This document shows positions 21,260-64,000 of a stretch of 64,000 bases of DNA, piece by piece. The notes under the pieces were generated by a model, which saw nothing but the letters and a program-made list of their open reading frames with translations, did no database searches and was not told the DNA's origin. Origin of the DNA: Psammoneis japonica (lineage: Eukaryota). Numbering within the stretch: position 1 is the first letter of the stretch; each line of letters opens with the position of its first letter. The stretch covers positions 62,001 through 126,000 of the forward strand of contig QPGO01000111.1 of assembly GCA_008632985.1 (NCBI GenBank), given 5' to 3'. The translations under genes and the position numbers were made by a program.

Positions 21260-24090
<2,831 letters not shown>

Positions 24091-40722: not shown

Positions 40723-41514
40723 CGAATCAAAGTAGAGGGACAAACTCTTCCCATGTCTCTCTACGCAACTCTTTTGCCATCTATCAGTGGAGTCGCGATC
40801 CCTTCACTGGTGCTCCTGTGTTTGTTGCCTCCGTCTCGACTCTCACGCTCTGCGTTCTACGACTTTGCTCGTGCATCGTGTTGAGATCATTTGGGAGTAA
40901 TCATTGTCCTTACCAATTATCTCTTCTAGAACAACAGCATACGGTGAAAGACACAAGTCTGCGAGGCGTGGTCCCAACTTCTTTTTGTCTTGTCTTCTAC
41001 AATACATAATTCTTCGGCCTTGATACAACCTTTGCCAGCACCTGCTGGAGTTTAAAACTCTATCATCTAGCCTAGTGCGTCCTTCATGATCGAGATGTAC
41101 AATAGCTTGGTCTATGAAATGGCGCTACGGCGAGTGCGTCCGACATTGAGTTGGAGATACCAACTATCTTTGCCTCCAAGGAATGTTGTGTTGACACAAT
41201 GTTGCTTCGATTCATTTCGATTCATGGGCATTTTGACGTTGCTGAAATGCTCTTGGATGATGGAGCCGGTTCGAGCACTGGCGCCAAAACGCGGATTGAC
41301 GCCGTTACTTTAAATGCGCAGAGAGATTGCTGCCTTGTTGCTGACTTTGGGAACACGTATTTGCATCTTACAAAGAACGAAAAGCGCAGCACTGATTCTA
41401 GAGAAGCTCTTATTGTTGAGAGAAACTACTGTTTTGTTAATATCCAGACTGCAGTATCATCGTAGTACTTTTTGGACAAGTCATTCTACTCTCTAGACTA
41501 GTTCTTACATAAAA

Positions 41515-43578
41515 TCACAATTGTCCGACCTGTCGAAGAAGCTCCAAGTTTTCATCTTCTTCATCCTGGTAGACTTCCTCTAGTTGTAGCTGAATCAAAT
41601 CCTTTGCATCCGCCATGCCATTTTTTTTACAAAGCACAGCGTTGCATGCGCTCTTGTACATTTCTCCGCCGTATTCACTAGACACCAAGCTCCAAAACGA
41701 GTACAGCTTCTGGTTTGTTCGTTGCACGTACATGAGAATCATGTTCAAGGCTCTGGCAGCCTCCAACACAATGACCGTCTTTTCTGCAAGGACCGAATGA
41801 TAAAATACTTGAACCAACAAAGCAATCCCCGACTTTACTCGTATGCTACCAACTTGGTCATGATTCCTATTGGTTGAGTTGGTCGTTGATTCTTCCGTGG
41901 CGTTTGCAATCATCTGAGTTCGAAGCAATGCGATTCCCTCGGATGTTTGACAGTACAAAATTGAAAAGAGACTCAGCAACTCCACACACAACGCATCGAG
42001 TCCATAATCGTCAGCCGCGTTTGCGTCACTTAGATAATCCCCGAGAACCCTATAGTCCATAATGTCGAGAATCAATGCCAACAGTCGACGGGAGTAGTTC
42101 CCGTTCCCATATAAATCCAAGAATTCCTTTTGATTTGACAGGACGAGCTTCTTCATTACATGAAAAGCACTCGTGCAAAGGTCCATGGCCTCTTCAAATT
42201 GCGCAGAAGCTAGATCAATTGTGGCGGCACCAGATACGCTTCCCTCGTACAGGGCACGATGAAAGCGGTGTTTCGTCTTCTTGTTTAGGCATGAATGAAA
42301 GAAAGGCTCCAACAAGACGCACATGATACATTCGCCGCAGTAGCTGTTCTTGTCGCAAAAGATGCCTTGCTTTTTCGGAAAGTAGATGTCTTGCCACCAC
42401 CTAATTGAAGAGTCGTTGGATGAAATCAACAAGGATAGAATTAAAAGAGATTCGCGTGCCAACTTCAAGGAGCTATCCTTGTCGCCGACGAGTGCCTGCT
42501 TGACAAAACCAACGAGCCTGGATATCACGTCACGACTTGTGTCCACTCGATACAGAGCATTCGATGTAGCGCTACCAGTCATGGAAGCGTCAGAGCCCAG
42601 CAGTGTTTGCGCGAGTTGTCCCAAACCATTCTCGCTAGACGATATCTCGCCGTCCTTGACGAATCTTATGCGACTGCGCTTTCTTGATGGCCTTGCTCGC
42701 ATAAAGTCATCTCGTCCGGGTTTGCTCCACAGCAAGATCTGATAGAAAACTTTAAGTGCTATGACTTGCTCTGTCTGGTTCTGGAGACACGATTGCGTAC
42801 GCTGAATGATCTCCCAGACAAAATCCAACTCTGAAATGGTATTGCTACACTGTCTGACATGGGACAAAAACTGGTATAAATCTTGCAGTTTACTGTCAGT
42901 AACGTCCCGAGGAAGTATCGTTGAAAGAATATGAGAAGCGAGTCGTTCGACAGTCCCATAATCGCGACGAGTAGCCTGTATTGGAACGTGATGATGAACA
43001 ACGATTGTTCTCGTCTTTGTAACGACACGAGGAGGAGGCGGAGTAGGTGTAGGTGGTAGAGCAGCAGCAGCGTTTGGTGAAACTGAGTGACTAATCAATG
43101 ACGCATTGGGATGATGCTGTTGGTGTTGCTGCTGCTTTTGGTGCTGTTTGAGTCTCGCATGAGCGAGATTAGCTTCTTGCTGAGCGCGACGCAATGCCTC
43201 CTGAGTTTGATGCAATTTCTGTCTTGATTCTTCTTGTACCATTTTGACGGAATGGCTCGTTTCTGCCTGAACCGTCGCCAAGGTAGCTGATAATTCAAAG
43301 ACCTGATCATCTTTTGCGACGAGTTCCAATCGTAATTGTTGAATCTAGAGAGAGAAACAAACATACCTGAGTACACAATGTCGAAAAGCAGCGAAAAAAT
43401 GCCGTTCGTGAAAACATACCTGTCGTTGTAGTTCTTCCTTTTCGCGCTTATCAGCATTATCATAGGAAGGAGGGATCAAGGGAGGATGATTAGAAGCTTG
43501 TTCGTGATAGCCATTTGTTCCGGGCGCGGATGAAGAGCCGTCGGTAGTCCACGCCATTTTGTCTTTGGACTGTTGCAT
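41515..43578 (-). CDS. Uncharacterised ~660-aa protein, N-terminal coiled coil and helical C-terminal region, 2 exons
   Basis: Exon 43420-43578, GT-AG intron 43345-43419 (cag|gtatgt...ctctag|att), in frame with the long ORF ending at 41515. Normal codon composition. Confidence 0.85.
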
Positions 43579-43817: not shown

Positions 43818-44905
43818 CATTTCCATTGTTCTGCCGTCGGCAAATTCCAAAGCCCTCTCTAGAGAGAGAGACTGCGGTGCTCCAAGCTGGTGCTTTTGTC
43901 CTCTCTCTGCTCTCTCGAACATCCAGCTCATTGGCTTCTCTCTTTCTTCTGTGTCCCAGCACAGTTCAAGAGAACAACAACTCAACTTTTTGTTCATCAT
44001 GTGGTGAAATGATGTTGCTTGTGTGGGCTGGTGAAAGGCTGATGCAGAGGCAAAGTGGTTAGAGACAGCTGGCTAAAAAAATGCAAAATGCAAGAAAAAC
44101 GATTGTGGTGCAGCGACACTGGCCACCATGAGACAGCTCTGTTCTTCTCTCATTGTGACCTTGGTCGGCACCTGTCATTGATGTGTGACAAAGGCCGCTG
44201 CATTTAGATCCCACCTGATGGCACCACAAGAGCTTTGAGTGCCATGTGGTGGGTGCTGATTTCTGTGGAAATTGGGACAAAACAATCACATGACAGAGGA
44301 TCCCAACGCAGCAAAGTCGTGCAGCGGCTCTGTGTCATCAAGCATGGAGGAGCCCCTCTCTGTTGGTCATGAAAGTTGCAAATTAATTTGCTCTCAGCAG
44401 CAGTGAGAGTGAGCATTTGGCCCTCTGTCAGCTGTCACCAGACATGTCAAGGCACCTCTGTGCATTTGCTGGAAGAAGTCAACAAACTTTTGCAACATGC
44501 GTTGTCATGTGCGCACCACATGTGCATGTCCACATGTCAAATAAAAGCACATTTCAATCGCACGTCAATCGTGGGTTCGTACGAAGTGCAGATCAGTCAC
44601 ACAGAAGTGATTGGATGTCGAGAATCGCAAATGCGATCGTACGATGATGTTGACATCTCATGTGTCAATGTCAATCGCATCCGGACAATCTGTCGTCACG
44701 ATCATATTCTCCGAAAGGCCTTTTGTCTGCAGGAGCAGCACAAAAGGTTTAGGCCATTGAGAACCCGTTCGGAGAAACCCAAAATGATTGCGCAGAAATG
44801 GTTCTCATAATTTTCACTTTTTGAACTTCATTCTACTTTCGTTTGCACTCGTTCTTCGAGCACAGTGCATTGTGCATACACACCACAGAAGGCAACAAGT
44901 TCAAG

Positions 44906-46060
44906 ATGAAGCTTTCACCTCATGCAACCAACGCCAAAACTTCGTCAAGGCAGGAGAAAATCGTCCCTCAACCGCTGGAATCGAACTCCGAGCCGAAGAG
45001 CCTCAAACCGAGCCAGCACCTCAAGATGGAGCAACGTTTTCATCCCGAGAAGAAGGACAGCCGCACCTGCACCATCAATGTTGAGTGCCACAAGAAACAA
45101 GGTGTCCCCAAGTTCATCGAATTTCTCAAGAGCTACGATCAACTTCCAGTGGGCCAGAATGTCAGGAAGCAATCTGATGAGTTTCGTCTCATGCACACGT
45201 TGCTCCAAGGAGACGCCCTGCGTGCTTTCGAGAATGCGGCAGCGAACCTTGAAGACGAATCTGCGGAAGGAAGCTTCGAGAAATGCCTGCAACATCTCAC
45301 GAGGCATGTGTTTCCCAAGAACGCACTTTCGGTGCAGAAACGTCATTTGCGTCGTGATCTCAAGAAGCCGGAGTCCATGAAAGTACGCGAAATTGCTGCT
45401 TGGGTCCAGGAAGTCAACGAAGACCTCAAGTTCCATCCTCCCTTTGGGAAGGAACAGAAGATCGAGGACGACGAGCTCAAGGACATCCTCTTCAACCTTG
45501 CACCTCGAAAGTGGCAGCGTCAGTCGACCGTCCAGGGTTTCGAAATTTTGAAACACACCCATGACGAGCTGGTTGAGTTCTTGGAGCGCCCAGAGGTCGC
45601 AGAAGACACATTTGATGGCATTCATGCCAAGGCTGATGGCAGTGGCGGCACTGCATCAAAAGCCAAGAGTGGTTCCCAACGTGGTTCCAAAAATGGTCAC
45701 CAACATGGTGCCGAAAAATCTCAGTCCGAGAAGTGGTGCATTTCATGCGAGAAATCCACTCACAACACGGACAAGTGCTGGTCGATCAAAAGACTTGCGA
45801 AAGAACGCCGTGGGAACTGTGAACCCGACCCGAAACGGCACCGTTCAAATGGCAATCGCACGTGGTCTCGTCGCGACAACGATGACGCCACTCGCAAAGA
45901 AGAGTTGAATGCTGTGGCGATCCAAGCAGTTCAAAAAATGCTCAAAGCGAGTTCTTCGAACAATGATGAAAAACACAAGAGCAAAGATTGTGATTCTGAC
46001 ACCCTTGACGAGGAAAATTGTCAGTTTGAAAAAATGACGCGCAGTGATTCCGAGGAATGA
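44906..46060 (+). CDS. gag: Gypsy Gag (hypermutated)
   Basis: Long ORF right after the 5' LTR with zinc-knuckle-like CISCEKSTHNTDKC. Confidence 0.85.
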   Translation: MKLSPHATNAKTSSRQEKIVPQPLESNSEPKSLKPSQHLKMEQRFHPEKKDSRTCTINVECHKKQGVPKFIEFLKSYDQLPVGQNVRKQSDEFRLMHTLLQGDALRAFENAAANLEDESAEGSFEKCLQHLTRHVFPKNALSVQKRHLRRDLKKPESMKVREIAAWVQEVNEDLKFHPPFGKEQKIEDDELKDILFNLAPRKWQRQSTVQGFEILKHTHDELVEFLERPEVAEDTFDGIHAKADGSGGTASKAKSGSQRGSKNGHQHGAEKSQSEKWCISCEKSTHNTDKCWSIKRLAKERRGNCEPDPKRHRSNGNRTWSRRDNDDATRKEELNAVAIQAVQKMLKASSSNNDEKHKSKDCDSDTLDEENCQFEKMTRSDSEE

Positions 46061-46156
46061 CTTGCACCGCAAGAGGAGTCTTGCGCTCCACTGGACATTG
46101 GGAAGCCCAGAAAAAGGGCCAAAGTAATTCATGCTAGTCCAGCAGTCGTCGCCCAT

Positions 46157-49100
46157 GTGAATGCTTCATTGGGCAAGGCGAAAAATGAGCCTCTACGCGT
46201 TCTCCTCGACAGCGGAACATCGTCAACCATAATTTTGCGCAAATTCACGCGGAAACTCAGAACAAAAGCATCCGCCACCAAACTCTGGGAAACCAAAGGA
46301 GGGCTCTTCACGACTGACAGTCGATGTAAGATCCAATTCTCCTCACCCGAATTTGACAAACATGAGATGATTGAAACAACGGTGTGTGTTGACAACTCCC
46401 CTTCTTCTTCGAGTCGTTATGACATGATCATGGGACGCGACTTAATGTCAAGTCTTGGGATGATGTTGGACTTCTCGAATGAAGAAATTAAGTGGGAAGA
46501 TGCAACTGCTCCTGTGAAGAATGTTGGCACACTCTTCGATGCCGATGTTTTTAAGTTGATTGCCGATCACATTGAGGAATCTCATGCAGTGATTGGTCTT
46601 AATGACAGGGTCAATCGGATCCTTGACTCAGACTGTCACGCTGCAAACCTCAACAATGTGACCGCAGCAGCCACTCATCTAACTCCTGAAGAGCAGAAGC
46701 AGCTGAACTTCCTCTTAAAAAGATTTGAAAACCTTTTCGATGGTTCTCCAGGCAAATGGACCGGGAAACCGGTGGATTTAAAGTTGAAATCGGGCGTGAG
46801 TCCGTATCATGCCAAACCATTTCCCGCGCCACAAGCCTTGGAGGCGACCACTCGTAAGGAGGTTGAAAGACCATGCAAGTTGAAAGTCTTAAGAAAAATA
46901 AATTGTTCTGAATGGGCGGCTCCAACCTTTGTTCAACCCAAGAAAAATGGCAGAGTTCGGTTCTTGTCCGACTTTCGAGAGCCAAACAAGAGGTTAATTC
47001 GCACTCCGTTTCCTCTGCCCAATGTTCAGGACATGCTACAGAAGCTTGAAGGCTTCATGCATGCAACGTCCCTAGATTTAAACATGGGACACTATCACAT
47101 CGAATTGACGCCGCATGCACGTCGGTTGTGCACGATCGTCATGCCTTGGGGCAAATGTGAGTGCTGTAGACTCCCGATGGGAATCTGTGGAGCTCCAGAC
47201 ATTTTCCAAGAGCACATGAGTGAGCTCATGGCAGGTCTGGAGTTCGTCAGAACTTACATTGACGACACATTGTGTCTTGCAAAAAGTGATTTTCAAGACC
47301 ACCTCAAGAAGCTTGAAACGGTGTTCTCACGCCTAGAACAAGCCGGATTGAAGGTCAATGCCGAGAAGTCCTTTTTCGCTAAACCCGAAGTAGACTGTCT
47401 GGGCTTTCATGTCACCCGCAAGGGCATCAGTCCGATTCCAAAAAAAGTAGAAGCGATTCACGCGATCGCAACTCCTAAAACTCGCAAGGAATTGCGACGC
47501 TTCATCGGTGTGATCAACTGCTGTCGAGACATGTGGCCTCGACGATCTCATGTTTTAGCTCCCTCAGCCAAACTCACTTCCACCCAAGTAAAGTGGCAAT
47601 GGACCGAAACAGAACAAAAAGCCTTCGAAAATGTGAAGCGCATCATCTCCAAAGATGTGCCATTGTCATGCCCGAATTTTAACACACCCTTTGAGATGTA
47701 CACCGATGCTGGTAAATCTCAATTGGGGGCGGTTGTCACTCAGAAAAACCGACCAATTGCCTTCTACAGCCGCAAGCTGAATGGAGCGCAGACGCGTTGT
47801 GCCACAACGGAAAAAGAGCTGTTGTCCACAGTGGAGACGTTAAAAGAGTTCCGAAATGTGCTGTTTGGCCAACAGACAAATGCATGTGCGGATCACAAAA
47901 AATCTCACACACAAAAATTTCACAATGGACAGAGTCATGCGTTGGCGTCCAACAATGGAAGAGTGCAGTCCCGAAACAATGTGCCTTGAGGGCAAGGCAA
48001 ATGTTGTCGCAGACGCGATCAGCCGACTTGCTGTGAAGAAAATAGAACCTGTGGAAACCCTCAGCACAGAAGAGCTGGCTGAAAAGGTCCTGCCAAAATC
48101 CTGCGACAATGTCTTTCCGTTAAATTACAAAGTTCTTGATTGTGAACAAAAATGGGATAAAGACATTCTCTCCCAATTGTCAAACAAGACGTTTCGTGCG
48201 AAGACTTTTCGTGGAGGCGAGCGAGACCGGTTGCTCATGTGTCACAAGGACAAAATTGTCGTCCCGAGGACGTTACAAAAGGCAGTGACAGATTGGTGTC
48301 ATGCATGCCTTCTTCACCCTGGCATAAATCGAACAGAAGAAACAATCTCACAACACCTGTGGTGGTCCACCTTGCGTGAAGACATACGAAAATACGTGTC
48401 GAGATGTGAGACGTGCCAAAAATTCAAAAAGAAACACAAGAAATGTGGACATTTACCTCCTGAGTGCGCAGAATCCGCACCATGGGAACGACTGTGTGTG
48501 GACCTTGTTGGGCCATACAAAATGCGTCGTAAGGGAAAGAAAAAACCCCCAGTCCTGAAATGTTTGACCATGATCGATCCAGCAACCGGATGGTTTGAAG
48601 TTGTGGAAATCCCAAATGAGGAGTCCACAACTGCAGCTGGACTGTTAGAACGAACATGGCCAAGCAGATGTCCTTGGCCATCGTCAATTGCACATGACCG
48701 TGGAAGTGAGTTCATCGGACACCAATTTGGAGAAATGGTGCAAGATGATTGTGGCGTTGAAGTCAAGCCCATGGCTGCACGAAATCCACAAGCAAACGCA
48801 ATTGTTGAACGCGCACATCAAGTGCTGGGGAACATGCTCCGTGCGTTTGATTTGCAACACACACCTCTAGATGCTGAGGATCCTTTCGCTGGAATGCTGT
48901 CAGCAGTGGCATTTGCGGTGCATTCCATGTGTCACACCACTGCGCAAGCTACACCAGGACAACCAGTCTTCAACAGAGACATGACATTTAACGTCCAACA
49001 TGTCACGGACTGGAAATCAATCCAGCAGCGAAAACAAGAAATCACAAATAAAAACAACGCTCGAGAGAATGCTCGACGTGCTCCTCACACGCACAGAGCA

Positions 49101-49241
49101 GGAGAAAAGACACTGCTCGAGAAAGACTCGCAAAAATTAGAACAGCCCCATGTTGGACCGCATGCAACAACAACGGCACATGCTGATGGCACAGCACAGA
49201 TCAAACGCAGTAACGTCATTGACACTGTCAACATTCGTTGA
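46157..49241 (+). pseudogene. pol: Gypsy Pol: protease, RT, RNase H, integrase (hypermutated; frameshift ~47900)
   Basis: LLDSG, SLDLNMGHYHI, LPMG, YIDD, YTDAG, TTEKELL, HPGINRT..CETC, CVDLVGP, DRGSEF, NPQANAIVER. Confidence 0.93.
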
Positions 49242-51820
49242 ACAATGCCGTTTAACGACTGACTCCAATGTGCAATTAGGGAGGCGAATGCAACATGCAT
49301 TGTCATGTGCGTGTTGCACATGTGTGTCCACACATTAAATAAAAGCACATTTCAATCGCACGTCAATCGTGGGTTCGCACGAAGTGCAGATCAGTCACAC
49401 AGAAGTGATTGGATGTCGAGAATCGCAAATGCGATCGTACGATGATGTTGACATCTCATGTGTCAATGTCAATCGCATCCGGACAATCTGTCGTCACGAT
49501 CACATTCTCCGAAAGGCCTTTTGTCTGTGGGAGCAGTGCAAAAGGTTTAGGCTGTTGAGAACCCGTTCGGAGAAACCCAAAATGATTGCGCAGAAATAAT
49601 TCTCACAATTTTCACTTTTTGAACTTCATTCTACTTTCGTTTGCACTCGTTCTTCGAGCACAGTGCACTTTCTTGCCGAGTGAGGACCCCACCCACAATT
49701 TTCTGCAAGCTTTTTGAGGACAACTTGGCAGTGCTTGAAACAGCCAAAGTGCCCAAGATGAGGCCCAGAACATGCCACATCAACAATGTCCACCACCACT
49801 TCCACTCAGAGGTTGCCGGTGGACGTTTGCTGATTGAAGTTGTTGGCACCAAGCTCCAACAGGCGGATTTCTTGACAACCAAAATGCCCAACCTGTCAAC
49901 ATTCTTGCACAATCATCTGTCTGTGCAGGGATGGCAACAACTTGGACCTTTCGGCATGAGGGAGTGTGACATCATGTGCACATTTGTGTGTTCAACATGC
50001 CTCAAGCTGCAAGAATGACTTGTTGCTGTGACCACCATCAACAACTGAACCACCTGCAGATCAATCAATGCAAACCCAATCAAGAATTTTGAGGCTCAAA
50101 TCAAGAAGAGAGTTCACTTTGTTCTTGTTCTCACACGAACAAGAACTTCTTGTTTGTGTCAAGTCTTTGACCCCTGTTCATCCATGTTGCCTTCAGTGCA
50201 TCTTTTGGTCACTTCTTGTTTCTTTGCAGCTCTTGTTGGTTGCAGAGCAGCACAATTCATGTTCTCACAATTTGGAAATTGGTGAAAACCAAACACTGCA
50301 TGATTGTCTGTGTCAATGCTGTTTTAAGTCTCTGTGGCCCAAAACTCCACACACCCACAGAAGGATCTCATCAGTGCATCATTTGTGGAGCTTGTCAGCT
50401 GACCCCTTGCTTGACAATTGAGGGAGTGGAGCAACATCCTTTCTGGTTGATGCGTCCACAGAAGACCTCTGAGAGTTTAGTTGCTGACCCAAAGTTTTGG
50501 TGCACCGCCGCGCAGTGCACCGGCAGCAAATCTGCTTGCTCTGTGAGACAAGACAGTTGTCCACAACAAAATTGTCACAGCTCACAATGCACATGCATCA
50601 ACAGCATTTTCTTGCATGACATTGAGTGGTCCAAGTGTTGCCTTTGGGAGGAAATGAAAAATGAACGAGAAATTTGGCACAAACACTCTTGCAAGAACCA
50701 GCATCATCACTCAACTTGCCAAATCTTGCCAACCAACATTTTGCAAAAATTGATCAATTCCACACAAACTGGGGGCACACTGTTCTCATGTGGAGTTTGC
50801 AGCAATGGCATGTGCCCCTGTTTTCCAAGGAAGAGAGAGAACACCACCACAAAAGCCTGTCAGGTGAACAGCATCAATGAGCTGCAGTGTTTGTGTGGCA
50901 CGATTTGTGTTCTGAGTGGCAAAATGGCTTGACAGTGTGCAGAATTGTTGCGGTGCATGGGCCTCTGTGCAAGCAAATCCATTTCCAGGGCATTTCACAT
51001 GCAGCCATTGTGGTGGTTGATGTTCAACAAAGGCCGAAAATGCATCTCATGTGACAAAGAGACAACATGTGAGAATGCCCAACTCCTTCTTCAGATTTGC
51101 CCCTTGGCTCAATTCACACAACCAAATGTTTGTGTGGAGGCCCCTGCTCATGGGTGGATCTGTCCAGCATTCCCAAATGCCCAATCGCGCTGATCAACAG
51201 ACTGTTTTTGCACAAACCGCAGCTGCTGCATGTAAATTTCTTCAACAGTCTCACTTCCGAAGGCGCCCCCCAACACCAACCCATGACACGGGCAGACAGC
51301 AGACCTGTTTTGGCAACTGAGGCAAGTGCGTGGCTGCAGGAAGTGGTCAGCCCCGCACACTTGTGACTTGGAGCTTTCTGCGGTGAAAATTGCGCACCCG
51401 ACCCGACACTGACAAAAACAGTCAGACAACTTCCGCTTGCCACAATGTGAGCTGCGTCTGATCAACAATTTGTGCAGAACAAGGGGCAACAGACAAAAGC
51501 CAGAACAAACATGTTTTGTGTTTGAAGTTGTTCAATGTTTTCAAACATTGTTTGAAGTGTTCAATTTTTTGTTGCAAATGTGTTGCTCTCCTGGGTTTTG
51601 CCCTTTTGGTCATTTCAAACTCATTCTGACAAAGTTTGAACTTGTTCCAACAAGCTTGATTGAAGTTTGGAACAGCATGTGCACAGTTGCACAAAAACAG
51701 CATTTTTTCTCTTGTTGCCCGGTGGGCAATGACAGAATTCTAAGAAGAGTTGAAGGTGCATGTCACTCTCTGGCTGAAACATGTGTGACCATGTACAAAA
51801 AGCCTGTCAGTTTGAAGAAA

Positions 51821-51884
51821 GCGGTAAATGGTTTAGTCGGTAACCGGTTACAAGAGGACCTAGGTTCGATTCCTGGGTATCGCA
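51821..51884 (+). ncRNA. tRNA-like Pol III unit in TRIM 5' LTR (no normal anticodon arm)
   Basis: A-box tggtttagtcgg, T-arm ctagg-ttcgatt-cctgg (B-box), acceptor-like gcggta/tatcgc-a, followed by TTTTT. Confidence 0.7.
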
Positions 51885-52321
51885 ATTTTTCAGGTTGATG
51901 GGTCGGATTTAATCGAGTTGGTCAATCTTGTTTAAATCCTGTCATGGTGCGAGGACCGTTGATGATTTGAACCCAGGTGTGTGTGCTCCTTCAAGATGAC
52001 TCTAAAACTGAGGAGAGGCTGCGGTGAGACAGACCGACGATGCACATAGTGCTCTTATTAGGGATGCCGAGGCCGGAATGGCCGCCCAATTATCAGTTCG
52101 CCGGGGAGGTCATGACATGTGCAGAAAAATGTGGCCCAGGTAGAAGGGGAGCTGTGAGAAGTATCATTGTCCAAAGAAAGGAACGTCAGACAGCTTCGTG
52201 ACGTCAGACAGCTTCGTGACATATGGGGAGTGACAGAATTCTAAGAAGAATTAAAGGTGTATGTCACTCTCTGGCTGAAACATGTGTGACTATGTACAAA
52301 AAGCCTGTCAGTTTGAAGAAA

Positions 52322-52385
52322 GCGGTAAATGGTTTAGTCGGTAACCGGTTACAAGAGGACCTAGGTTCGATTCCTGGGTATCGCA
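52322..52385 (+). ncRNA. tRNA-like Pol III unit in TRIM 3' LTR
   Basis: Identical to 51821-51884. Confidence 0.7.
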
Positions 52386-52446
52386 ATTTTTCAGGTTGAT
52401 GGGTCGGATTTAATCGAGTTGGTCAATCTTGTTTAAATCCTGTCAT

Positions 52447-55400
52447 TGACAGAAATTGAAGGCAAATGGCAAGAATTCAAACAACAACTCCTTGCTGCTG
52501 TCCAAATAGCAGATGAGTCTCCGCTCAGAGACCGTTGCAGGAGCCGAAAGACGTGTAAGTCGGTGTGATCGGGCTACTGTTGTCATTCTTGTGAACCTTG
52601 TGGCTCGAAAGCACACTGCATCGCGCGTGAACGCGCGGAACTGAAGCACACAAAACTGTGCACGGTGACTAAACAGCGCGCGATGCTTCGCGCGCACCTG
52701 AATCCTGCTCAAATCCTGTCACTCCCCAGTTTGCTTGAGGAGCCACAGAAACAGATTCGACTTCGGATGGAATGAAGTTCCAGAACATGAGGGGGCGGAG
52801 AAGGTCCCAGATTTGGGACAACCCCAATGCTTGCTGAGAATGTCAGCAGGGTTGCGGGAGCCTTCGATGAAGTGGAGCTCAAGGCAGCCAGAGGCAATTG
52901 CCTCACGCGCATGGTGGAACGACAGCGCGGCATGTCGCTTGTGCAACTTGGAGTGCGGGATGGTGGCACTGTCTGCAACCGACTTGTTGTCACCGAACAT
53001 GCAGCTGACGTTGCGGATCGGGACGCCAAGGCAGCGCAGGGTGATGCGCAGGTCGACAATCTGCTCAACACAAGTCCTTGCGGCAACAAATTCAGACCCG
53101 CAGGTCGCAGTCTCCACGGTGGCTTGTTTCTCAGAGAACCAATCAGCCGGGAATTTGTTGAGGAAGTGGAGCATTCCCATGACAGAGCGCCCGGTGAGCA
53201 TGCAATGGCACAAGTTTGCATCGACGCAGTGGGTGGTGGCGACGAACTTGCCAAGGGGCGGTGGAGCGTCCTTCGGGATCATCTCTTCTGCTCCACCACA
53301 CACGGAATGCATCCACCCACAGGCCGGAGCAGGGAGATCCGAATGGCCGGGCTCTTCCGTGCGACGCGGAGAGCACCGTGTCGCATCTTGGAGAGGTGCC
53401 CACAGACGCGCTTGGCACGATCCAAGTGGCCTTGACGGGGCGCAGCTCGGAAGCTGGAGAGTGACATGACGGCCGCGGCAATGTCAGCTCGACCAAGGGA
53501 CACTGCCCATTGGAGTGAACCAACAAGAGACTGGAACTTGTGATGCCATCGGGTCCCAGCAGTTCGGAAGTGTCCAGCTCGGGGTGGTCACCCTTCTCTA
53601 GAGGTGACAGGGCGTTGGTGGTGGGTTTCTCCCCAAACAGTCGGGCACAGCTGTCAACCATGCGCTCGATGTGCTTGCGCGGAGACAGGCACAAGGTTCC
53701 GTCGGGTTCCCGGGAAAAGTCGCAACCCAGATGGAACTCAATGGGTCCCGCACCCTTGAGCTTGAACTTGTGCTTTTCCGTGAGGGTGTCGACGAAAGAT
53801 TGAGGGTCCTTCATGGCAATGGCCAGGTCATCCACACAAACGGCAATGTGTTCACAGTGGTCGCCGTTCCTGCGCATCCAAATGTCGGGTTCGGCGCGGC
53901 AGGGGAAGAAGCCTTCAGCTCGCAGGCAGTCGGCGAAGCGCTCGTGCCAGCGGAGACCGGAGCTGCGCAGTCCATGCAGTGCCTTGTGGATGACAAGGAT
54001 GTGTCCTTCGAGTTTGCCGAACTCGGGTCCAGCTGCAATGTAAAGCTTCTCCTTGGTGGTGGCTTCAAGGTGGGCATTGCCAATGTCGGTGGCCCATGTC
54101 TCCAACTCGTTGAGTTCGGCCAGGAAAATCATCAGCCGAAGGCCACGGAGGGAGACTGCTCCGGAGTGGACACTGTCGACAGGTGCGTCCGTGAGGTGCC
54201 CGTCGGCTGCGAGTCGTGCCTTGTGGCGACCGTCGTGTTTCACGTCGCACACCAGGTGCACTCGGATCTTCTTGTGTCCCGCAGGAGGAGTGGAAGACTT
54301 GAAGGGCCCGCAGTCATGGAAGACTTCGCATTCGTCGAGTTGGTCCATCTCGAGATTAGTTGCGTCTCCCCACTTGCGGTTGCCGTTGCGTTCGTCTGGT
54401 GACATGGCGTGTTTGCAGTTCCGGGGAACTTCGCATCCATGCTTGCAGCGAGGTGCAGTGCGGAAGGAGCGAAGCTTGGCTTGGTTGGCCATGCGAAACA
54501 GCTTCTTTTGGCGCCTCGCGATGGTGCGGAACCGCTTCCAGCCATCCGTGTCGAGGAGTCCGATCTCTCGTGCATGGATGGCACAGGTGACGGGGTCGTC
54601 CTTGGCGATGATGGCAAGAGGCTCGGACGTGATCTCCCCACTTTCCCATTCAAGCATGATGTTGTAGCTGGAGCCTTTCCAGGTTGGGTCGTGAGGCTTC
54701 AGAGGTCCTTCGTGTGACACGATGCGTCGAAATTTCCAAACAGTGGTGTCTTCGTCTTCTTGCTCAATGTGATTCATGATGTCATTGCAGGCAAGGACTT
54801 CCTCGCATTCGTCATTGTTGACAGAGCAGACGAACTCAGTGAGCTCGGGATTGCCGTTCACTTTCCATTCGTGGTCTTCGACGGCCTTGACGATGCGAGC
54901 TCTGTGGCGTTGTCCGTCCTCTTGTGGCTGCATGAGGAAGGTGCGTCCAATGATGTCTTGCGGATCGAAAACTGGCATCTTGGGTGTCCTGATCTCCCCA
55001 TCAGGAGAGTCGACGGGGTTGTCGTCATGGCGAGATTTGATGATGGGTTCAGGTGGCTCCCCATCAGGAGGATCAAGACGCAGGTTTCGGACAGCAGGAT
55101 CGGGGGTGGCGGAGCGGACGTTGGACCGGCAGAGGATTTTCTGATTCTCGTCAGATAGAATCTTGAAGGTCATCTGGTGGCCGACGTGCTCAGCAATGCC
55201 AACGAAGCGTCCACGCAACTCACGGGATTCGGACGGCCAATCGGAGTCATCGAGGTGGAAGCACACGGGTTCCCACCAGTGAAAGCGAAGCAATGGGCTG
55301 ATGTCCGGGGTGGAGCCAGTGAGAGTCTCAAGGGGCGTGCGCCAGTGGAGACGTGGGGACGCTGTGTGGTTGAGCATGAAGCACACGCACATGAGCGCCA

Positions 55401-58400
55401 GCAGCCATGCATGGGCGGGCGAACCAAAACGATCCATGACAGTGTTCGCCATGCGCTTCACGGTCTGGCATCGACGCTCGGCAAAGTTTTGGTGTTGCTG
55501 GTGAGGCTCACTTTGCCAGCTAGAGATGAAGAGGGCGCGCAGGAGCCCGAGCACTTTGTTGCTGATCTCAACTTGAGCACGGTTGCTGATGAGTTTGGAT
55601 GGGGCACCACGTTCACGGATCTGATCCTCGAGTGTGTTGACAAACTCTTTGTCCGTCTTGGTGCCACAGACGTCAGTGACGGTAGACTCGGTGCCAACAA
55701 ACAGTTGGGCGCTGGTGCAACCAGAGTCAACGGCCGGGGTGTCGGCACAAACGGTGTCAGTGGCGATGGGCTCGTTGCGGCGGTGCACATTAAGGGCGGG
55801 GTTGGGTGATTTGCAGGCCTTGCGAAGGTGTGTACCGGCGGGCATGCGGGCGCACTGCGTGGTGCAGTCAAAAGTGCGACGGACCGCATCGGCAGGTGGG
55901 AAGCCAAAGCAAGGCCGAAGAGACTCGAAGGGGGGGTCCTTGGGCTGTGCAGTGCGCTCCGGAGGTGGAACATCATCGCCCTGGGGGCCAATCGCATGCA
56001 GATGACACTCGTAGAACACGTCGTCGTTCGGAATGAGGTGATCATCGAGGGCGGACGCGTGATCGGCAGACAAGGAAGCGGACATGATGGTCTCGTTGAC
56101 AACGACACGATGACGGCAGTTGCCGCATTCGTCAAATGGGTTGGCAGTGGGATCGTCCTGCAGGTCAGAGATCGCATCGCACCACTGGTCGTCGTCAGTG
56201 ACAGAGTGATCGAGGACGGAAGGGTCCCATGTGTCATCACCGGTGAGGATGACATGGGGCAGGGTGTCCCATTCGGCGTCAGTGCAAGGTCGCATGGCAA
56301 CATGAGGCAGGCCAGCCTTGATGTCAATGGGGATGACACAGCCATCAGGAGTGGCAGTGCGTTGCAAGCCGTTGGGCACCTTGACAGAGCGATCGTTGAC
56401 ATCCTGTTTGTGCCATTCGAGCTGGCCGCAGGAATGGATGGTCTTGCCCTTGCCCGTGCATGCGTGCTGATGGAGTGTGGCGATGACGGGACCACGCTGG
56501 GTCTCAATGACGGCACCAGCGGTGACAATGGGGATGTCCACCAATTGATGATCGTCAATGCCCTGAACGTCGACTTGGCGAGAGGTGCGTGCAATGACGC
56601 GAACGTCGTCGCCAGCAATGCCGCCGTTGGCCCCACGATCGACTAGAGCACCAGTGCGTGTGGAGCGATGAGCAGAAGCAGAGCAAATGACATTGTGGTT
56701 GTCAACGCGGCGGTAAGTGCGACCGTCAAGTTCCATGTCATCTGCAGAAGCTGGCGGGGTAGAGGAAGCGGCGGATGGCCCCGGTCGACTGGCATTGGGG
56801 GCTTGGTTAGGAGACAACAGACGTTGCAGATCACCGGGTGGCAGTGGCTTGTGCTTGGTGAGGTGCGCCAGGATGGGATTGTCCGAAGTGGCGTCCACAT
56901 GTGGAGCGGAGTCACCAGAGTCAGCAGGAGTCGTGTTGGACAAGTTGACATCACCGTCACTCCCAAGGCGTTGGTCGTGAAGGTTGGCCGTAACAGACTC
57001 ATGGCAGTTGCTGGCTCGCGGGTTGCGGGGAGGTGGACGAGAATGCTCAAGGATGATCGCCTTGGAGGAATCGGGCAACGAATCCCAGAGCCGTTGGTGG
57101 TCGGGAGGGAGACGTCTCCATTGGACACCGGCGAGGCTGGGACCGCGGGTGCAGGCAGCATTGGCTTGAAGGACGTCAACGTCGCTGTCAATGTCGTAGA
57201 ACACATCGTCGGACGGTTCCTCGGAGTGGACGTCGTGTGCGCACATGGCGCGTCGGGGAGCTCGAGGTGTCGTCTTGGGTTGAAACGTGCTGTCGTGCTG
57301 AGCTGCGGCGGAGAGGAGCAAGCCACAGCATTGATCGTATGTGAGGCTCTTGCCACTCTGCGCACGATGCTGATCAGCTTGGTTCTTGACAGCACGGAGT
57401 TCCTCGACAGGGTGCACGGCATTCTCGAGCATGACGCGCTTCTGTCCTTCAGAGAAGTGGTCACTGGCCGGGATGAGTGCCTCGCACTTGCGCAACTGAT
57501 CTTGCCAATGAAGGATGAACCCGTGGGTCGGACCTTTCCAAGTGCCATCACCAAGACGCGCGGTGGTGAGGTGCGTGAGCAGGGTGGAGGACTCGACAGA
57601 TGCGCGGGTGGAGGCAAGCGCGCACTCAGACAAGGAGCGGCAGACGGTCTGTGCATCAGAAGACCCCACATTTTCGCGAATGAGAGCCTTGCCCTTGTCG
57701 GTGAGAAGGATGCGTTCGAAGACGGCGAACATGCACTTTTGCTGTTCAGCAAAGAGCAGTTTGTCTTCGGGGCTGGTCGGTTTGTACGACGAGTCTAGAA
57801 TGCACTCGACGTCTTGGGCACGGGCTTGTGCCACAAGTGAGGTGTGCCAAGTGTGCCACTGCTTGTCGGATTTGAGAGCCGTGAAAGCGGTGGGATCACG
57901 CTTGATGCCTCGCTTGAAGTCCCGCACCGGGTCGCGTGCCTTGGTCGGGTTGGTGACATGTGGAGGTGCAAGGGGTGAGCTGCCGATGGACACAGAAGAC
58001 ATGCAGTCGGGGCTGAGGCGGCAGGCAAGGAACTCGTCATGCGTGAACAAAGAGGAGTCGTTGGCAACGTCAAGACCTTTGTGTGCTTTGACAATGTGCA
58101 GACTGACCAGTGCTGCTAACATGTTCTTACAACCATGGGGCAAAGGGATTGCATTGGTGCCGTTGTCGTGCTCAAGCGAGTCGATTTGGGACGGTGTGAA
58201 CGTGAATGGTTCCTGATGCGAGTCCGTGCCGTCTTGGGCCAAAGCCAAACGAAGAGGACTCCCAGCACCTTGGGCAAGCACGGTTCCAACCACGTGCTCA
58301 AAAACCATCGGTTTGTTGCTGACGAGTGAGAACCATGGCAGACAAAGGTGGTGTCAGGACAATCAATTCTGGTTGGGAAGCGAAGGTGGACTCGAAACTT

Positions 58401-59554
58401 GGGTGAGAACAGACTTGACTTGAAATGGACTTGACTTGAAATCTTGAACTGTCTTAAAATCAGAAGTCGCCGGGCTTTGTCATCCCGTTCGTTGTTGAGT
58501 GCTAAACTTCCTGTCCGGTCCGTAGAGTTGTGCCGGCACGTCCGAACCCGCAGCCAGTGGCGCTTTGGGTTGCTTACGAGCGGAGTAGCGGGTTGTAAAC
58601 CCCTGCAGGCAAGCTGACTAGAGGTGGACAAGACCCCCGAACCGTTCTTGTTTTATGTCGGTTGGATTTCCCGATCAGGCTGGCCAGCTGATGCAGGCGT
58701 CAGGCGCTGTGGACGAACGAACAAACGCGGGAAAGCACCCTCGCCCCAACGCAGGCTGTGATCACGGCCACCTGCTCTCACAGTCGTCCTCGTGGACCTA
58801 GCAGAACTGTAGAGCACCAGCAGTCCGGGGTGGATCAGGTGCAATGGACTCGGTGTGCTTGCAGAGTGGCAGCAAAACCGAAGTCCGAAGAGTGGATAAA
58901 GGTTCTTGGCCGTGAAGACATGCACATGTACACACATGTCTTCAGCGACGAAGATCCTTGAACATGCAGGGTTCTTGACCGTTAACCGAGGAACAGGCAC
59001 ATCAAGGGATGTTGATCAAGGATGGGACTTGGACATGACCGTTGAATGTAAGTCTTCAGCGATCAAAGGCAGCACAATCAATCCAGATATCCAGCGGTAA
59101 GGAGACTTGACGGTGACGTTAACTTCCTGCCGATGCCCTGGTGTTGAATGCGCGTAGACTTGCCGATGTATGTAGAACACACACGGAGGTCCACGTAGAA
59201 TTGAAATAGCGTCGTTGGTAAATCAACGACGACGATGGCGGTTGCTCAATGGGTTGACAATGAGCAAGACTGTTAATCTGACAGAAATTGAAGGCAAATG
59301 GCAAGAATTCAAACAATGACTCCTTGCTGCTGTCCAAATGGCAGATGAGTCTCCGCTCAGAGACCGTTGCAGGAGCCGAAAGACGTGCAAGTCGGCACAA
59401 TCGGGCCACTGTTGTCATTCTTGTGAGCCTTGTGGCTCGAAAGCAAACTACATCGCGCGTGAACGCGCGGAACTAAAGCACACAAAACTGTGCACGGTAA
59501 ACTAAACAGCGCGCGATGCTTCGCGCGCACCTGAATCCTGTTCAAATCCTGTCA
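52447..59554 (-). mobile_element. Full-length Ty1/Copia (CoDi-like) LTR retrotransposon
   Basis: ~275-bp LTRs at 52447-52721 and 59279-59554, PPT actggggag adjacent to 52721, domain order gag-PR-IN-RT-RH, ~1 kb 5' leader. Confidence 0.95.
52719..58336 (-). pseudogene. Copia Gag-Pol polyprotein (hypermutated; frameshifts near 58310, 53540, 53330)
   Basis: LVDRGANGG (PR), EPHQQHQNFAER (IN), DVKHDGRHKARL, DIGNAHLEA, KALHGLRSSG, AVCVDD (RT; YVDD>CVDD), VDANL, ETATCGSEF, NPADILSK (RH). Confidence 0.93.
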
Positions 59555-59559
59555 GGCAA

Positions 59560-62500
59560 TGCTGCACCTGTCCCACTTGTGCTTTGCAACCATCAAGACA
59601 AACCATGCACAGCTGAATCCCAATGTCATTGCAGCACTGCACACAATCCTTCATGGGTTCATGGACAAGTTGGGGTCATCTCGCAGCAGCGCCAACATGT
59701 CGTTGCATTGGAAGCGGCAGCATTTTGGTCATGGCAACATGGTTTTGTTCCACTTGTTTGTGCAAGTGCTGTTGGGGTCATGTCATTCCCACCTGATGAC
59801 ACATTGTTTCCTCATGGACATTTGCTTGTTGTCACTTGCCAGAGGACACAGACAAATCATTTCAAACAACTTCAAACACTTTGAACAATCTCTTGGGCAA
59901 TGTGAAGGGCAACAGAGACAGAAACCTCCAAATGTTTGAAGCTTTTGTCCATCCCACACAATGTCCATGTGGAGACACATTGACAGGAATTGGGAATCTT
60001 CCACTTCTTTTTCAAACCTTTGATGTTTCCTGGATCACCCATGAGCACAATTGATGGAAAAAGGAGGGGAGCAGCAGAGCAAGGTGCCAGGCATGTGGCT
60101 GTGGTGCAGCAGCTGCCATTGAGCATTGGCCCTCTGGCTGACTGTTGACACAATCAGAAAGAAGTGCCCAACAGACAAGTGCCAGCTGCTGCAGCATGTC
60201 TCTGGAGGTCTCTGGAACATTCTTTTGATTTGTTGGTGCAACTTGAGTTGCGGCGTGCAGCTCAAAGTCAAGGGGAGGGGGAACAGGGGGGGGCAAGAAA
60301 TGGCGCACTGGTGCACAGAAGACACAGGAGCAGCAAGGCATCTGCAGGAACCACAGCTTTTGCTGTTGAAAAAACAAAAGATTTGCATTCTTGGACAGTG
60401 CCATGGTTGCCATGAATTGCAAGTTTTTGGAAGGAAGTTTGAGTGCCACACAAGTTGCATCATGTGAAAAGGTGAAGTCTGGTCACAAAAATTCTTGCAC
60501 AGAAAGAAGCACAAAGTGAAAAGCAAAGAGGAGGGTCTTGCAGGATGAGCTGGTTGTTTGTTTTGCAGTGGGCTCAATTTTGACATTCAAGCAGTTGAGA
60601 GAAGCAAACTCCAGGTGCAGTTTTGACATGAAATGGCCAGCTTCTCAAAGATTTTCTTTCACCCAGTTTGTGCTGTGGCACAGGTGCCGTGTGGACAGCA
60701 GCTGCAGCTTGGGGGGCAGCGACAGGTGGCAATCCAGACACACCAGCTTGCTGTTTTGAAAAAGCTGCAGTTGCAACCCAACAAAGCCAGACAGCAGTTC
60801 CCAGAAGCAAACCTCTTGCATGAAGTTGGGCTGTTGCCACTGAGATGCTTTTGGATGTGAGGAAGGGAAACAAGAGAGCTCATTTCCAGCTGCTGGCTGG
60901 GCTGGATGTTTGTGAGTAAAAGCAGGCATCATGCTGCAGCTGGCACAAGCAAAGTCACTGGAGATGACTCAAACTGGGGTCACGTGCATCATGATGTTGA
61001 AAAAGGGGAGCAGGAGCATTGGATCAAAAGGAAACAGAAAAGGCACTGCAAAGGCAAGGGCACCCCCACTGAGGTTCTGAAAAGCATGCCAAATTTGCAA
61101 CCCAGTTGCCCAGCAGCATCCCTGTGAAAGAGTTTTGTTGTTGCTGCATTTCTGTCTTGCACTCATCATCCAAGTTCAGGAGTGTAAATTGGTGAATTGG
61201 AGAAGCTGATGATTTGATCAAGGTGCTGAAGCAACACAAAAGGTTGAGTGTGTGCAGGGCAGCAAGCCACATTGCAAGCCTGTGCAAGTTAAAATCACAC
61301 ACAGATGAGCCATGGTGAGGCACTGAAAAGAGTGACAAAACAAGCTGGTGGGGGGACAAACTGTGAAGCATGCTCATGGTGTGCAAGCACAAAGCTCTTT
61401 TTCAGCATGCTGCATTTTTTAGGCACTGGCCAGAGGGCTGCAGCCAACTCTCTTTTCAACCAGGTTTCAGTGCTTCTGTCTCTTGATGTCTCAGTCTTTG
61501 CTTCTCATGAAGTGTGATGAGGGTTCCAATGCAATGACATGGAGTTGTCATGTGTTGGGGCCCCACAATCCATGGCACAGAGATTTGGGGACAACATGAA
61601 ATGAGTGTGCATGACATCATTGATCAAAACAGAGTTGCGCTTGGGGTGCATTTCTCTTTCATTGGCACCAGCACAAAAGGATGATGATGAGCAAAGGAAG
61701 CAGCTGAGGTGCACCCCAGACATTGCCTTCTTCCAAACCATCACAATGTTCCCACTCAGCACTGTCACTTGGGCTTCAGAGTTGGGGCCTGGCAGCTGTG
61801 ATGTGACTCCATCTTGAGCTGCTTGCAAGCAGTGACTTCACAGACACAGCAGCAGTGAGGGCCTGGAGGCAGCTCAATGAGAGTGGATGACAAAAGCAGA
61901 CATCAGAAGACATGTTGCACATGCTCACAGAACAGCTCAATTGGGGACCAATGAGCAACCTCTGATCAAAAACAACCTTGCTCAGCAGCAAATGTCAGTT
62001 TCAAGGGTTTGAAGCAGCAGCAGCAAATGCTCCAGTCTAGGTGCTGCATGCACCACAGATTCTTTGGTGGAAAGACAGAACGAACCAGTGCTTGTGCTCT
62101 CTGTGCATCTAAAAAAAACTTGCTGAGCAAAGGCAGGCAAGACAAAGGCTGCATCATGCACCTTGGGCACATGATGCCTCAGCTGCCTTTGAACTTTGGC
62201 GCCGGGCATGTGCACTGGTTTCTTGCACCCCTCCCATCCCTTGGTGGTGAGAACAAAACCAACTTGACCTGACAGACAAGCTGGAATGGTGCTGTGCCAG
62301 CACAAGCATGCCTGAGATTGGTGTGGAGGTGGAGGATGTGGATTGAATCAAGAGATGAATCAAATTGACATGAAGTCACATGCACTCACCTTGTGCACAG
62401 ACAATGCTGTCCTTGTGTGGACACCAAGACTTGTTTGGGATTCACTTGGTGACTTGAATGACGCCATCCAACACCAAGAAATTGCTGCAATGGGTGGATT

Positions 62501-64000
62501 GAAAACACAAGTGCATCTTGAAACTTGGAGTGGCTGTGGTGCAAGACCTTTTTGACTTGCTTGCAATGCCAGCTGCACTGGAAATGTGTTCATTCTCACC
62601 TCTTCTTGCTCATGAAGCCAGCCATCAATGACAAGATCCGCGCCACTGTGTCAGGATGCAAGCATGAAGAAGAAACAAAACAGCAAGGAAACAAGCTCAC
62701 ATGCATCCTCAGAGCATGCTTTGACTGCCAACTCTGCTTGATGCTGACTGTGGCATGGCATCTGACAACTTGCTTTGGGCCCACGGGAGGATCAGAGCTT
62801 TTGGTGCTGCACGTGGTTGTTGTTGTTGGATTGCAGTTGCTGTGTTGTTGCCTTTGACATTGGCACCTCCATGCCACAAAAGATGTGACAAACTCTTTTA
62901 GAAACTTGAAACACAAGACTGGTGGGGGATGTCTCCAGCCAGCTGCTGGCTGAAAAAATCTGCCTGTCAATGCATTTGATGACAGACTCTTCCAGCACCA
63001 ATTCTGCACACAAAATTCTTCAGCCAGCAGCTGGCTGGAGACTTCCTCCAAGACAGAGGATCCAGTGATGCAGCTTTGAAGAAGCCCTGCCACATCAAAA
63101 GAAACATGGCGACTCCAAAATTCAAACAGTGAAATGTCTTTGGCCTGTTGGGGGCAAAGGTGCTGGTGGTGGAAGTCTGTGGATTCCCATGGGGATGCTC
63201 AGAGAACATCAGTGCTTTGGTGATTGCACCATGACGATGTGCGATGGAGTGTCAAAAATCAAGAAAAACAGTTGGTGCCACAGCGCTGCAAATTGCTGAG
63301 CAATTGCATGATTCACTGCCTGAAGGTCAAGTGTCATTGCCTGGAGCAACATTCTCCCTTCGTGCAGATGTCCATTCTGCATGGCACATGGCATTGAAAA
63401 TCTCATTGCAGCTGCATGAGGCACAGTCCAGGCAATTTCATCAAATGACCTCTTTGGTGCACTGTGCTGTGTGATCTACACACATCGGACATTCTTGAAT
63501 GCTGGTGCATTTTCTGCAGTCTCCACATGCATGAAGCTCAAATTTTGTGCCTGAAGGAACAACCACCCCCTTTGGGCACGCAAATCACACAATTGTTCAG
63601 CAATTTGTGTTGAGCATTTAAACACCCCACATCACAGAAAGCTGCGCACAGGCAGATGCGTGTCACACTCATTTTCATTTTTCTGGGGATTTTGCCAGTT
63701 GCCCATCTGCCCAAAATCAACCACTGTCAGACCAAGCCCTTCAGCTTCTGTGGTGCTTTTGCAATGACAAGAGCACAAATGCAAAAATTGCCAATGGCAA
63801 AACTGGCACTCATCTCTGTGATGCTCATTTTGAAGACAATCAGCTCCACACCACCAACAACCCCAATCTTGTGACTGACATGCGTCATGACATTGTGGTG
63901 AGAAATTTCATTGTGTTCAGTTGTGTTTGTGCACCACATGGTGCAGCATCATGTTTTGATGTTTTTTGGGGTGTCACCTGTCCTTGTTTTGCTCACAGTC
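59560..64000. other. TpA- and CpG-depleted degenerate domain, contiguous with 50000-51729 before the TRIM/Copia insertion
   Basis: Almost no TA and little CG. Shared GGCAA TSD at 51725-51729 and 59555-59559. No recognisable domains. Confidence 0.75.

Follow-up and report, generated by a model that had tools for sequence, protein, structure and literature searches.

How does a retrotransposon that keeps a long reading frame and abundant CG dinucleotides come to have almost no TA dinucleotides and almost no tyrosine? The question is raised by a Ty1/Copia-type long terminal repeat (LTR) retrotransposon of the diatom Psammoneis japonica, which lies within the 64-kb stretch of contig QPGO01000111.1 (positions 62,001 to 126,000) that we analysed, hereafter the window. 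A sequence-only reading of this DNA had proposed that a fast TA-directed step was followed by a slow decay of methylated CG. We consider it probable that a DNA-level mutator aimed at mobile DNA turns TA into TG or CA, likely by adenine deamination, with CG decay coming second and more slowly.

TA and tyrosine loss in the Copia element

Observed dinucleotide counts were compared with those predicted from base composition (observed/expected, o/e). The Copia element contains 53 TA versus 327 expected and 519 CG versus 568 expected, and its 1721-residue open reading frame (ORF) contains 21 TA versus 222 expected and 395 CG versus 432 expected. The abundance of CG asserted in the sequence-only reading is borne out by these counts, and the CGCGCG tracts described as intact are present four times in each LTR. 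Across the depleted DNA of the window, TpA was reduced 6- to 30-fold, with a deepest TA o/e of 0.03; where TA o/e was 0.03 to 0.16, AT, AA and TT remained at about 0.8 to 1.3 of expectation.

The ORF had been credited with about seven tyrosines, and the count is exactly 7 of 1721 residues. The resulting frequency of 0.41% compares with 3.0 to 4.5% across 82 full-length Copia polyprotein homologues, a comparison that the earlier reading had itself called for. Cysteine is raised (3.3% versus 0.9% in the homologues) and so is histidine (5.1% versus 3.5%), and the combined excess of the two approximately equals the missing tyrosine. The catalytic motif of the reverse transcriptase reads CVDD at residue 1491, as had been noticed, compared to YVDD in 50 of 50 aligned homologues. 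At the 31 columns in which at least 80% of these 50 homologues have tyrosine, the Copia residue is Cys at 16, His at 10, Phe at 2, and Ser, Pro and Tyr at one each, whereas the non-tyrosine residue classes are 75 to 100% kept in the same alignment. The homologues are thus not natively Cys or His at these positions, since they have tyrosine at the 26 of 31 columns where this copy has one or the other. Because tyrosine is encoded by TAT and TAC and was replaced by cysteine or histidine, the underlying change is TA to TG and TA to CA.

Contigs of a public sequencing run gave the same direction. Among the best-supported 34 differences between contigs and window, which were classified from 40 of 369 difference rows, 10 have TG or CA in the window and TA in the other copies, and none shows the opposite. 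Six others are TG/CA doubles, and four have CA in the window and CG elsewhere.

The two LTRs of the Copia likewise differ mostly at TA-type sites. Their 15 substituted columns include five single TA/TG or TA/CA differences, six columns that make up three TG/CA doubles, and three columns outside TA and CG; an extra TA/TG difference coincides with an indel of 1 base. One TA is shared by the two LTRs, and 0 of 20 shared CG sites differ. All five mismatches quoted in the earlier reading are present. The doubles are far more likely of TA origin, since no single CG difference exists, although a CG origin is formally possible. On this comparison roughly three quarters of the TA sites in the LTRs have gone since copying, as against none of the 20 CG sites, and the rate of TA loss is about 200-fold the background, an estimate from small counts. 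The raw divergence of 15/275 (5.5%) falls to 3/213 (1.4%) outside the hot sites.

The assignment to Ty1/Copia is supported by a match of the ORF to RVT_2 (Pfam, E = 1.9e-21), the LTRs, a near-full polyprotein alignment and the 5-bp target-site duplication GGCAA, which was found only around a composite of the Copia and a mini LTR element and not around the Copia by itself. The element may be a diatom CoDi-like Copia. In-frame homology of the ORF to full polyproteins extends from 58302 to 53521, and the final ~130 residues are out of frame. The homologue P0001 (1859 residues) aligns over residues 12 to 1848 but is broken into four frame segments, which implies frameshifts of 1 base at three points, near 53530, 53355 and 52822; many other copies of the family in the public-run contigs have an extra base there. 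The copy therefore has a long ORF and yet is not intact. The claim that such elements would look intact stands for the long frame, but not for this copy as a whole, given its three frameshifts.

Paired copies, other elements and the order of TA and CG loss

Segments that occur twice in the window allowed the change to be followed site by site. In a 2-kb pair (Table 1), 6 of the 77 TA sites of the gene-like partner were kept, 33 had become TG, 29 CA, none CG and 9 something else, amounting to 62 transitions versus 9 other changes, and a single change ran in reverse. At CG, 61 of 93 sites had turned into TG or CA. A younger pair (38235-38833 and 28505-29085) had lost 11 of 23 TA with 0 reverse changes, and a third paired segment 8 of 12. 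Both strands were changed about equally, in the 2-kb pair as well as at the tyrosine codons of the Copia (16 Cys versus 10 His). The strand order of TG and CA outcomes in the 2-kb pair was random (32 runs versus 29.3 expected, z = 0.73), and likewise in the two smaller pairs (z = -0.06 and 0.21). These runs tests reject strand-coordinated, processive mutation, and a processive single-strand deaminase is unlikely.

Two further classes of element carry the same scar. In a Ty3/Gypsy-type LTR retrotransposon, tyrosine makes up 0.3 to 1.1% of the ORFs, all 24 of 24 LTR mismatches are transitions, 16 of which form eight TG/CA doubles, and 1 of 23 CG sites differs between the LTRs. Six of the eight doubles have CA in the left LTR and TG in the right one. 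In the region of a Helitron remnant (29086-32759), TA o/e is 0.19, and none of the five conserved tyrosines is kept, three of them being cysteine now. As the Helitron has no RNA stage and the two LTRs of a single Copia copy have diverged at TA sites, the process operates at the DNA level.

The effect on reading frames follows from the genetic code. A change of A to G after T, or of T to C before A, turns no sense codon into TAA, TAG or TGA, and it removes TAA and TAG. Many long overlapping frames therefore arise in depleted DNA; the six-frame density of TAA plus TAG is 4.7/kb in the old domain at 400-20850, as opposed to 27 to 33/kb in gene-like DNA, and TGA rises. The earlier claim that the mutator creates no new stops holds in this codon logic and in an example from outside the window. 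Among 120 surveyed metagenomic and database Helitron Rep/helicase proteins, the metagenomic protein P0249 is uninterrupted over 2012 residues, although 21 of its 26 conserved tyrosine columns have His (14) or Cys (7), with Phe at 2 and Tyr at 3; its other conserved columns are kept at 475 of 502. P0249 and P0295 are 2 of the 120 that are tyrosine-poor and Cys/His-rich from TA-erased copies.

The order of the two losses is visible across the window. When 64 bins of 1 kb were scored for TA and CG retention, 16 kept both, 20 had lost TA only, 28 had lost both and none had lost CG only. The old domains had been described as poor in both dinucleotides, which the counts in Table 1 confirm, and TG and CA reach 1.8 to 2.0 times expectation in them. 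In the three paired segments, with background divergences of 10/471, 32/542 and 139/1528, CG loss was 3/26, 13/42 and 61/93, respectively, against the TA losses of 11/23, 8/12 and 62/77. Set against background divergence, TA is lost many times faster in the LTR retrotransposons.

Metagenomic relatives of the Copia (49 loci) show the two losses apart. They share 64 to 69% DNA identity with the window element in the 15 best matches listed and are too diverged to serve as same-family outgroups. TA o/e is 0.5 to 1.0 in 46 of the 49. Three loci are poor in TA and keep CG (TA/CG o/e of 0.13/0.74 in L038, 0.27/0.80 in L033 and 0.31/0.76 in L025), and eight are poor in CG (0.13 to 0.40) with normal TA. 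Since TA-only loss and CG-only loss both occur among the relatives, the two decays are separable in both directions. In L038 and L033, all conserved tyrosine columns that the locus covers are occupied by Cys or His, in patterns that differ from each other and from the window copy; they are independent hits rather than members of a lineage natively without tyrosine. The TA process is thus present in other environmental organisms too.

The old domain at 400-20850 also indicates which sites last longest. Of its 59 surviving TA, 21 lie in TTAA versus 4 expected, and none lies in ATAC, ATAG or ATAT, for which about 19 were expected. The context is strand-polarised, with A disfavoured 3' of the target (8 of 43 opportunities) and C favoured (33 of 51), both on small counts.

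Mechanism, targeting and rival explanations

The data show a transition process in DNA that is specific to TA and symmetric between the strands, changes each site independently, leaves genes alone and runs ahead of CG decay. The proposed mutator would act on the chromosomal DNA of mobile elements, at the palindromic 5'-TA-3', and convert it to TG or CA by an A-to-G change on either strand, with T required immediately 5' of the A. Sites are hit independently and the strands about equally, those flanked as ATA or TAT earliest, with TTAA the most durable. The adenine would be deaminated enzymatically to hypoxanthine, in what may be silenced transposon chromatin, giving G at the next replication. 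Decay of CG to TG or CA comes later, at a slower and roughly clock-like pace. As tyrosine codons always contain TA, tyrosine becomes cysteine or histidine, and killed elements keep long ORFs. Host genes and at least one low-copy neighbouring element escape.

Evidence on targeting comes from the DNA that was spared. TA o/e is 0.41 to 0.62 in gene-like DNA, as opposed to 0.02 to 0.29 in the Copia, Gypsy and Helitron elements. A tandem 1.1-kb duplication (24279-26461, 96.9% identical) within a hybrid histidine-kinase/receiver gene keeps 32 of 36 TA, so duplication alone is no trigger. The mini LTR element next to the Copia is essentially unmutated (TA o/e 0.59); its LTRs share 10 TA and show 3 differences. 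The background divergence of the LTRs is alike in the two elements (3/181 in the mini element, 3/213 in the Copia), and the GGCAA duplication flanks them as a single unit, which suggests that they integrated together. With the Copia depleted and the adjoining mini element spared at like divergence, targeting is family-specific and has a sharp boundary. It correlates with family repetition in the public-run contigs, in which the Copia family is highly repeated: 13,775 pieces, whose depths add up to hundreds of times the depth of the flanks, although this sum is, by the tool's own warning, no measure of copy number.

A number of points weigh against this account. The evidence base is one 64-kb window, and the public-run contigs, from four runs, stem from one sample that is maybe the assembly's own, so they are not independent. 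A T-directed route, in which oxidised thymine pairs with G, may have produced the same changes, since TA is palindromic and the scar would be identical. The spared mini element speaks against simple regional targeting, and the one-sided mutation of the duplicated segment speaks against symmetric repeat recognition. TA and CG loss in the paired segments both rise with background divergence, TA always ahead. The Gypsy LTRs (4 shared TA, 5 single and 8 double differences) fit no single per-site rate, a pattern that may reflect context effects or local strand bias. We infer that the old TA-free domains are transposon remains, but they hold no recognisable transposon proteins: Pfam gave nothing meaningful for 13 long frames of these domains, and no remnants turned up in them when tblastn was run with Copia, Gypsy and Helitron proteins. 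The CG decay is presumably deamination of 5-methylcytosine, as judged from its CG-to-TG/CA spectrum. In the earlier proposal of a fast TA step followed by a slower, separable CG decay, the bins, the LTRs and the relatives uphold the order and the separability, and the methylation part depends on this spectrum. Finally, the Copia interior keeps 1 of 31 conserved tyrosines, whereas each LTR keeps roughly one in four of the TA sites inferred for it, and part of the mutation load may predate integration, having come from a template already mutated or from editing of the cDNA.

This last point leads to the alternative that survives best, namely that editing took place before or at integration, by a deaminase acting on cDNA or by mobilisation of a mutated copy in trans, so that copies arrived TA-poor. 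It would explain why the interior is more depleted than the LTR comparison predicts and also why the mini element within the common target-site duplication is nearly unmutated, although that element would have shared the cDNA stage. The Helitron remnant and the duplicated host-gene segment, however, are depleted without any cDNA stage, depletion deepens with age to an o/e of 0.03, and integrated DNA of the chlorarachniophyte Bigelowiella natans acquires this signature in real time, as a recent preprint reports (10.64898/2026.01.13.699255). As an explanation of the whole pattern we regard it as unlikely.

We give far less weight to RNA editing, in which an ADAR-like enzyme would change A to I in double-stranded transposon RNA and reverse transcription would then fix the change. 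ADARs are not known outside animals, which counts against it. Most of the recognisable targets here are retroelements, and the preprint points to the 5' U preference of ADARs (10.64898/2026.01.13.699255). The LTRs of one copy differ, however, and Helitrons and non-coding DNA are affected. Moreover, TG and CA arose in similar numbers (16 and 10 at tyrosine codons, 33 and 29 in the 2-kb pair), whereas sense-strand editing would favour one of them, and the 5' T requirement is absolute, with 0 changes of TA to CG and few changes outside TA.

No more credible is a sequencing or assembly artefact in which a modified base at transposon TA was miscalled as G or C. Base modifications can give systematic miscalls on some platforms, but the public-run contigs agree with the TA-free flank at all but 1 of 848 bases, the same signature is found in unrelated metagenome assemblies, and the outcomes at homologous sites differ between copies (TG/CA doubles), as fixed mutations would. 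Native composition or selection against TA or UA, without a mutator, is the least probable of all and is refuted by the conserved-tyrosine test: a mild shortage of TA is common to most genomes, and the host genes of the window have an o/e of about 0.5, but 46 of the 49 related elements lie at 0.5 to 1.0, catalytic and other conserved tyrosines were destroyed, the Cys/His pattern differs from copy to copy, and the element carries frameshifts.

Known systems and neighbouring features

The closest precedent is B. natans, in which two integrated viral regions received 231 of the 302 nuclear single-nucleotide mutations of mutation-accumulation lines; with one exception, the mutations in these regions were A to G or T to C, all of those lay on TpA, and the hypermutation rate was about 1000 times the background (Mettrop et al., bioRxiv 2026, 10.64898/2026.01.13.699255). 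The same source found reverse transcriptase and DDE domains to be over-represented among coding sequences poor in TpA, and it proposed an ADAT2-like deaminase (10.64898/2026.01.13.699255). The basic phenomenon is thus already described in the chlorarachniophyte preprint (10.64898/2026.01.13.699255). The signature of the window matches that description in every feature testable here: substitutions are almost only A to G or T to C, they are restricted to TpA, mobile DNA is targeted and genes are spared, and the rate is far above background.

There are also differences. B. natans is a rhizarian and P. japonica a stramenopile. Depletion here is near saturation (o/e 0.03 to 0.16), compared with 0.45 in the giant-virus insert reported for B. 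natans, and what was hit here comprises LTR retrotransposons, a Helitron and a duplicated segment instead of the integrated viral DNA described there. The window holds a fossil signature only, as opposed to the de novo mutations in integrated DNA of the preprint. Three features of the window, namely that CG decay comes second, that flanking bases matter and that a neighbouring element is spared, do not figure in the preprint's Results and Discussion. Full-text literature searches brought up no account of TpA-directed hypermutation from diatoms, and a term search of a 2025 diatom-transposon preprint (10.1101/2025.10.24.684338) found none of 'TpA', 'RIP', 'hypermut', 'deamina' and 'dinucleotide'.

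Other systems resemble the window in part. Repeat-induced point mutation (RIP) of ascomycete fungi likewise kills transposons by dinucleotide-specific transitions at the DNA level and leaves a compositional scar. However, it changes C to T mainly at CpA, making TpA and stops, whereas TpA is destroyed here and no stops arise; and it mutates both duplicate copies, whereas the 2-kb pair shows 62 forward changes versus 1 reverse and the 1.1-kb tandem duplicate is untouched. The TpA depletion, the direction of TA to TG or CA and the mutation of one copy rule out fungal RIP. Decay of methylated CpG also strikes a palindromic dinucleotide of silenced repeats, leaves TG and CA behind and is present in the older domains, but it acts on CG and is slower, as seen in the CG differences between the young LTRs (0/20 in the Copia and 1/23 in the Gypsy). 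APOBEC, which changes C to U on cDNA, and ADAR, which changes A to I on double-stranded RNA, are examples from animals of deaminase-type hypermutation against retroelements, the latter with a 5' U/T preference. They edit cDNA or RNA, often in strand-coordinated clusters, whereas DNA transposons are affected here too, the strands are equal and the order is random. The process in the window is not editing of retroelement intermediates by either of them.

Diatoms and chlorarachniophytes may even have an 'adenine RIP' in common, in which a guided adenine deaminase would write A-to-G changes at TpA into the DNA of transposons and integrated viruses. It would be an ancient genome-immunity system of the stramenopile-alveolate-rhizarian (SAR) group that kills elements silently and leaves their reading frames unbroken; we put this forward tentatively and hold it to be rather doubtful. 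A guide, by homology, small RNA or copy number, is proposed because the ~1000-fold repeated Copia was erased and the low-copy mini element spared.

If the proposed mutator is real, TpA-specific hypermutation would extend from one rhizarian alga to diatoms, which are major phytoplankton, and its near-saturation action on ordinary transposons would point to a widespread genome defence. Relative to the work on B. natans, the additions are the diatom host, the ordering of CG decay, the flank preference and the family-level evidence on targeting. Comparison of species with and without the signature would offer a route to the gene. There are practical consequences as well: mutated elements with ORFs of 1700 to 2000 residues are liable to be annotated as intact or active, dating by LTR divergence is inflated (5.5% raw versus 1.4% outside hot sites in the Copia), and the tyrosine-poor, Cys/His-rich products of erased copies contaminate protein databases as if functional.

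Table 1. Positions and composition of the features discussed, numbered from the first base of the window.
Feature	Position	Strand	Remarks
Ty1/Copia-type LTR retrotransposon	52447..59554	-	TA o/e 0.16, CG o/e 0.91
3' LTR of Copia, 275 nt	52447..52721	-	4 TA, 20 CG, four CGCGCG tracts
5' LTR of Copia, 276 nt	59279..59554	-	4 TA, 20 CG; differs from 3' LTR almost solely at TA-type sites
1721-aa ORF (gag-protease-integrase-reverse transcriptase, predicted)	53143..58308	-	7 Tyr; CVDD at residue 1491
Polyprotein C-terminal (RNase H) part	52765..53539	-	Three further frame segments, divided by 1-base deletions
GGCAA, left target-site duplication copy (5 bp)	51725..51729		Sequence reading
GGCAA, right target-site duplication copy (5 bp)	59555..59559		Sequence reading
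Mini LTR element (TRIM-like), 716 bp	51730..52445	+	Two 215-nt LTRs, 286 nt between, TGACAG...CTGTCA termini
Ty3/Gypsy-type LTR retrotransposon	44491..49667	+	LTRs 44491-44869, 49289-49667; TA o/e 0.2, CG o/e 0.9-1.2
Helitron Rep/helicase remnant, internally deleted	29980..32212	+	0/5 conserved Tyr kept
Hypermutated copy of 39645-41637	33593..35667	+	Partner's TA: 6/77 kept; CG: 23/93 kept
Unmutated partner copy, gene-like region	39645..41637	+	TA o/e ~0.5, CG o/e ~1
Host genes (H+-pyrophosphatase fragment, GAF-histidine kinase-receiver genes)	21000..28500		TA o/e 0.45-0.6, CG o/e ~1
Old domain	400..20850		TA 59 vs 1393 expected, CG 444 vs 1166
Old domain carrying the composite insertion	59560..64000		TA 9 vs 299 expected, CG 29 vs 256

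The mini element is joined via a single T to the Copia on the opposite strand, and TGG, resembling a primer-binding site, directly follows its first LTR. The pair looks like two cDNAs joined end to end and inserted in one integration. The Copia LTRs also have the termini TGACAG...CTGTCA, and the mini element, given these common ends, may be mobilised by this Copia family. In its LTR (51800-51900 and 52300-52400), a stretch resembles, by eye, the T-arm of a transfer RNA (tRNA); ARAGORN called no tRNA at 51500-52600. A contig of public run X1 bridges 51654 to 59642, omitting 7987 bases, with imprecise alignment ends, and may represent another version of the old repeat, allelic or paralogous, without the composite insertion.

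The proteins of the host genes share 36 to 40% identity with their best named relatives, which are pennate diatoms, and up to 47% with unnamed relatives, so that the host is a diatom whose nearest named relatives in the protein collection are distant. The tandem duplication at 24279-26461 yields two receiver-domain ORFs. Three gene-like segments from 38235-41637, one with a SAM-domain/glycine-zipper ORF, were copied around the Helitron remnant (28505-35667). TA loss climbs along these copies, from 11/23 through 8/12 to 62/77, and the SAM-domain ORF remains open in both copies. They could be the result of gene capture by the Helitron or of a segmental duplication later invaded by it.

Within the old domain, degenerate internal repeats of ~60 to 350 nt, 68 to 87% identical, occur at 12800-14700 and 3300-4000. 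In another TA-free stretch, a frame of 210 residues (50300-50932) has 11.9% cysteine, 0 tyrosine and no Pfam match; it is probably a product of TA erasure and not a real cysteine-rich gene.

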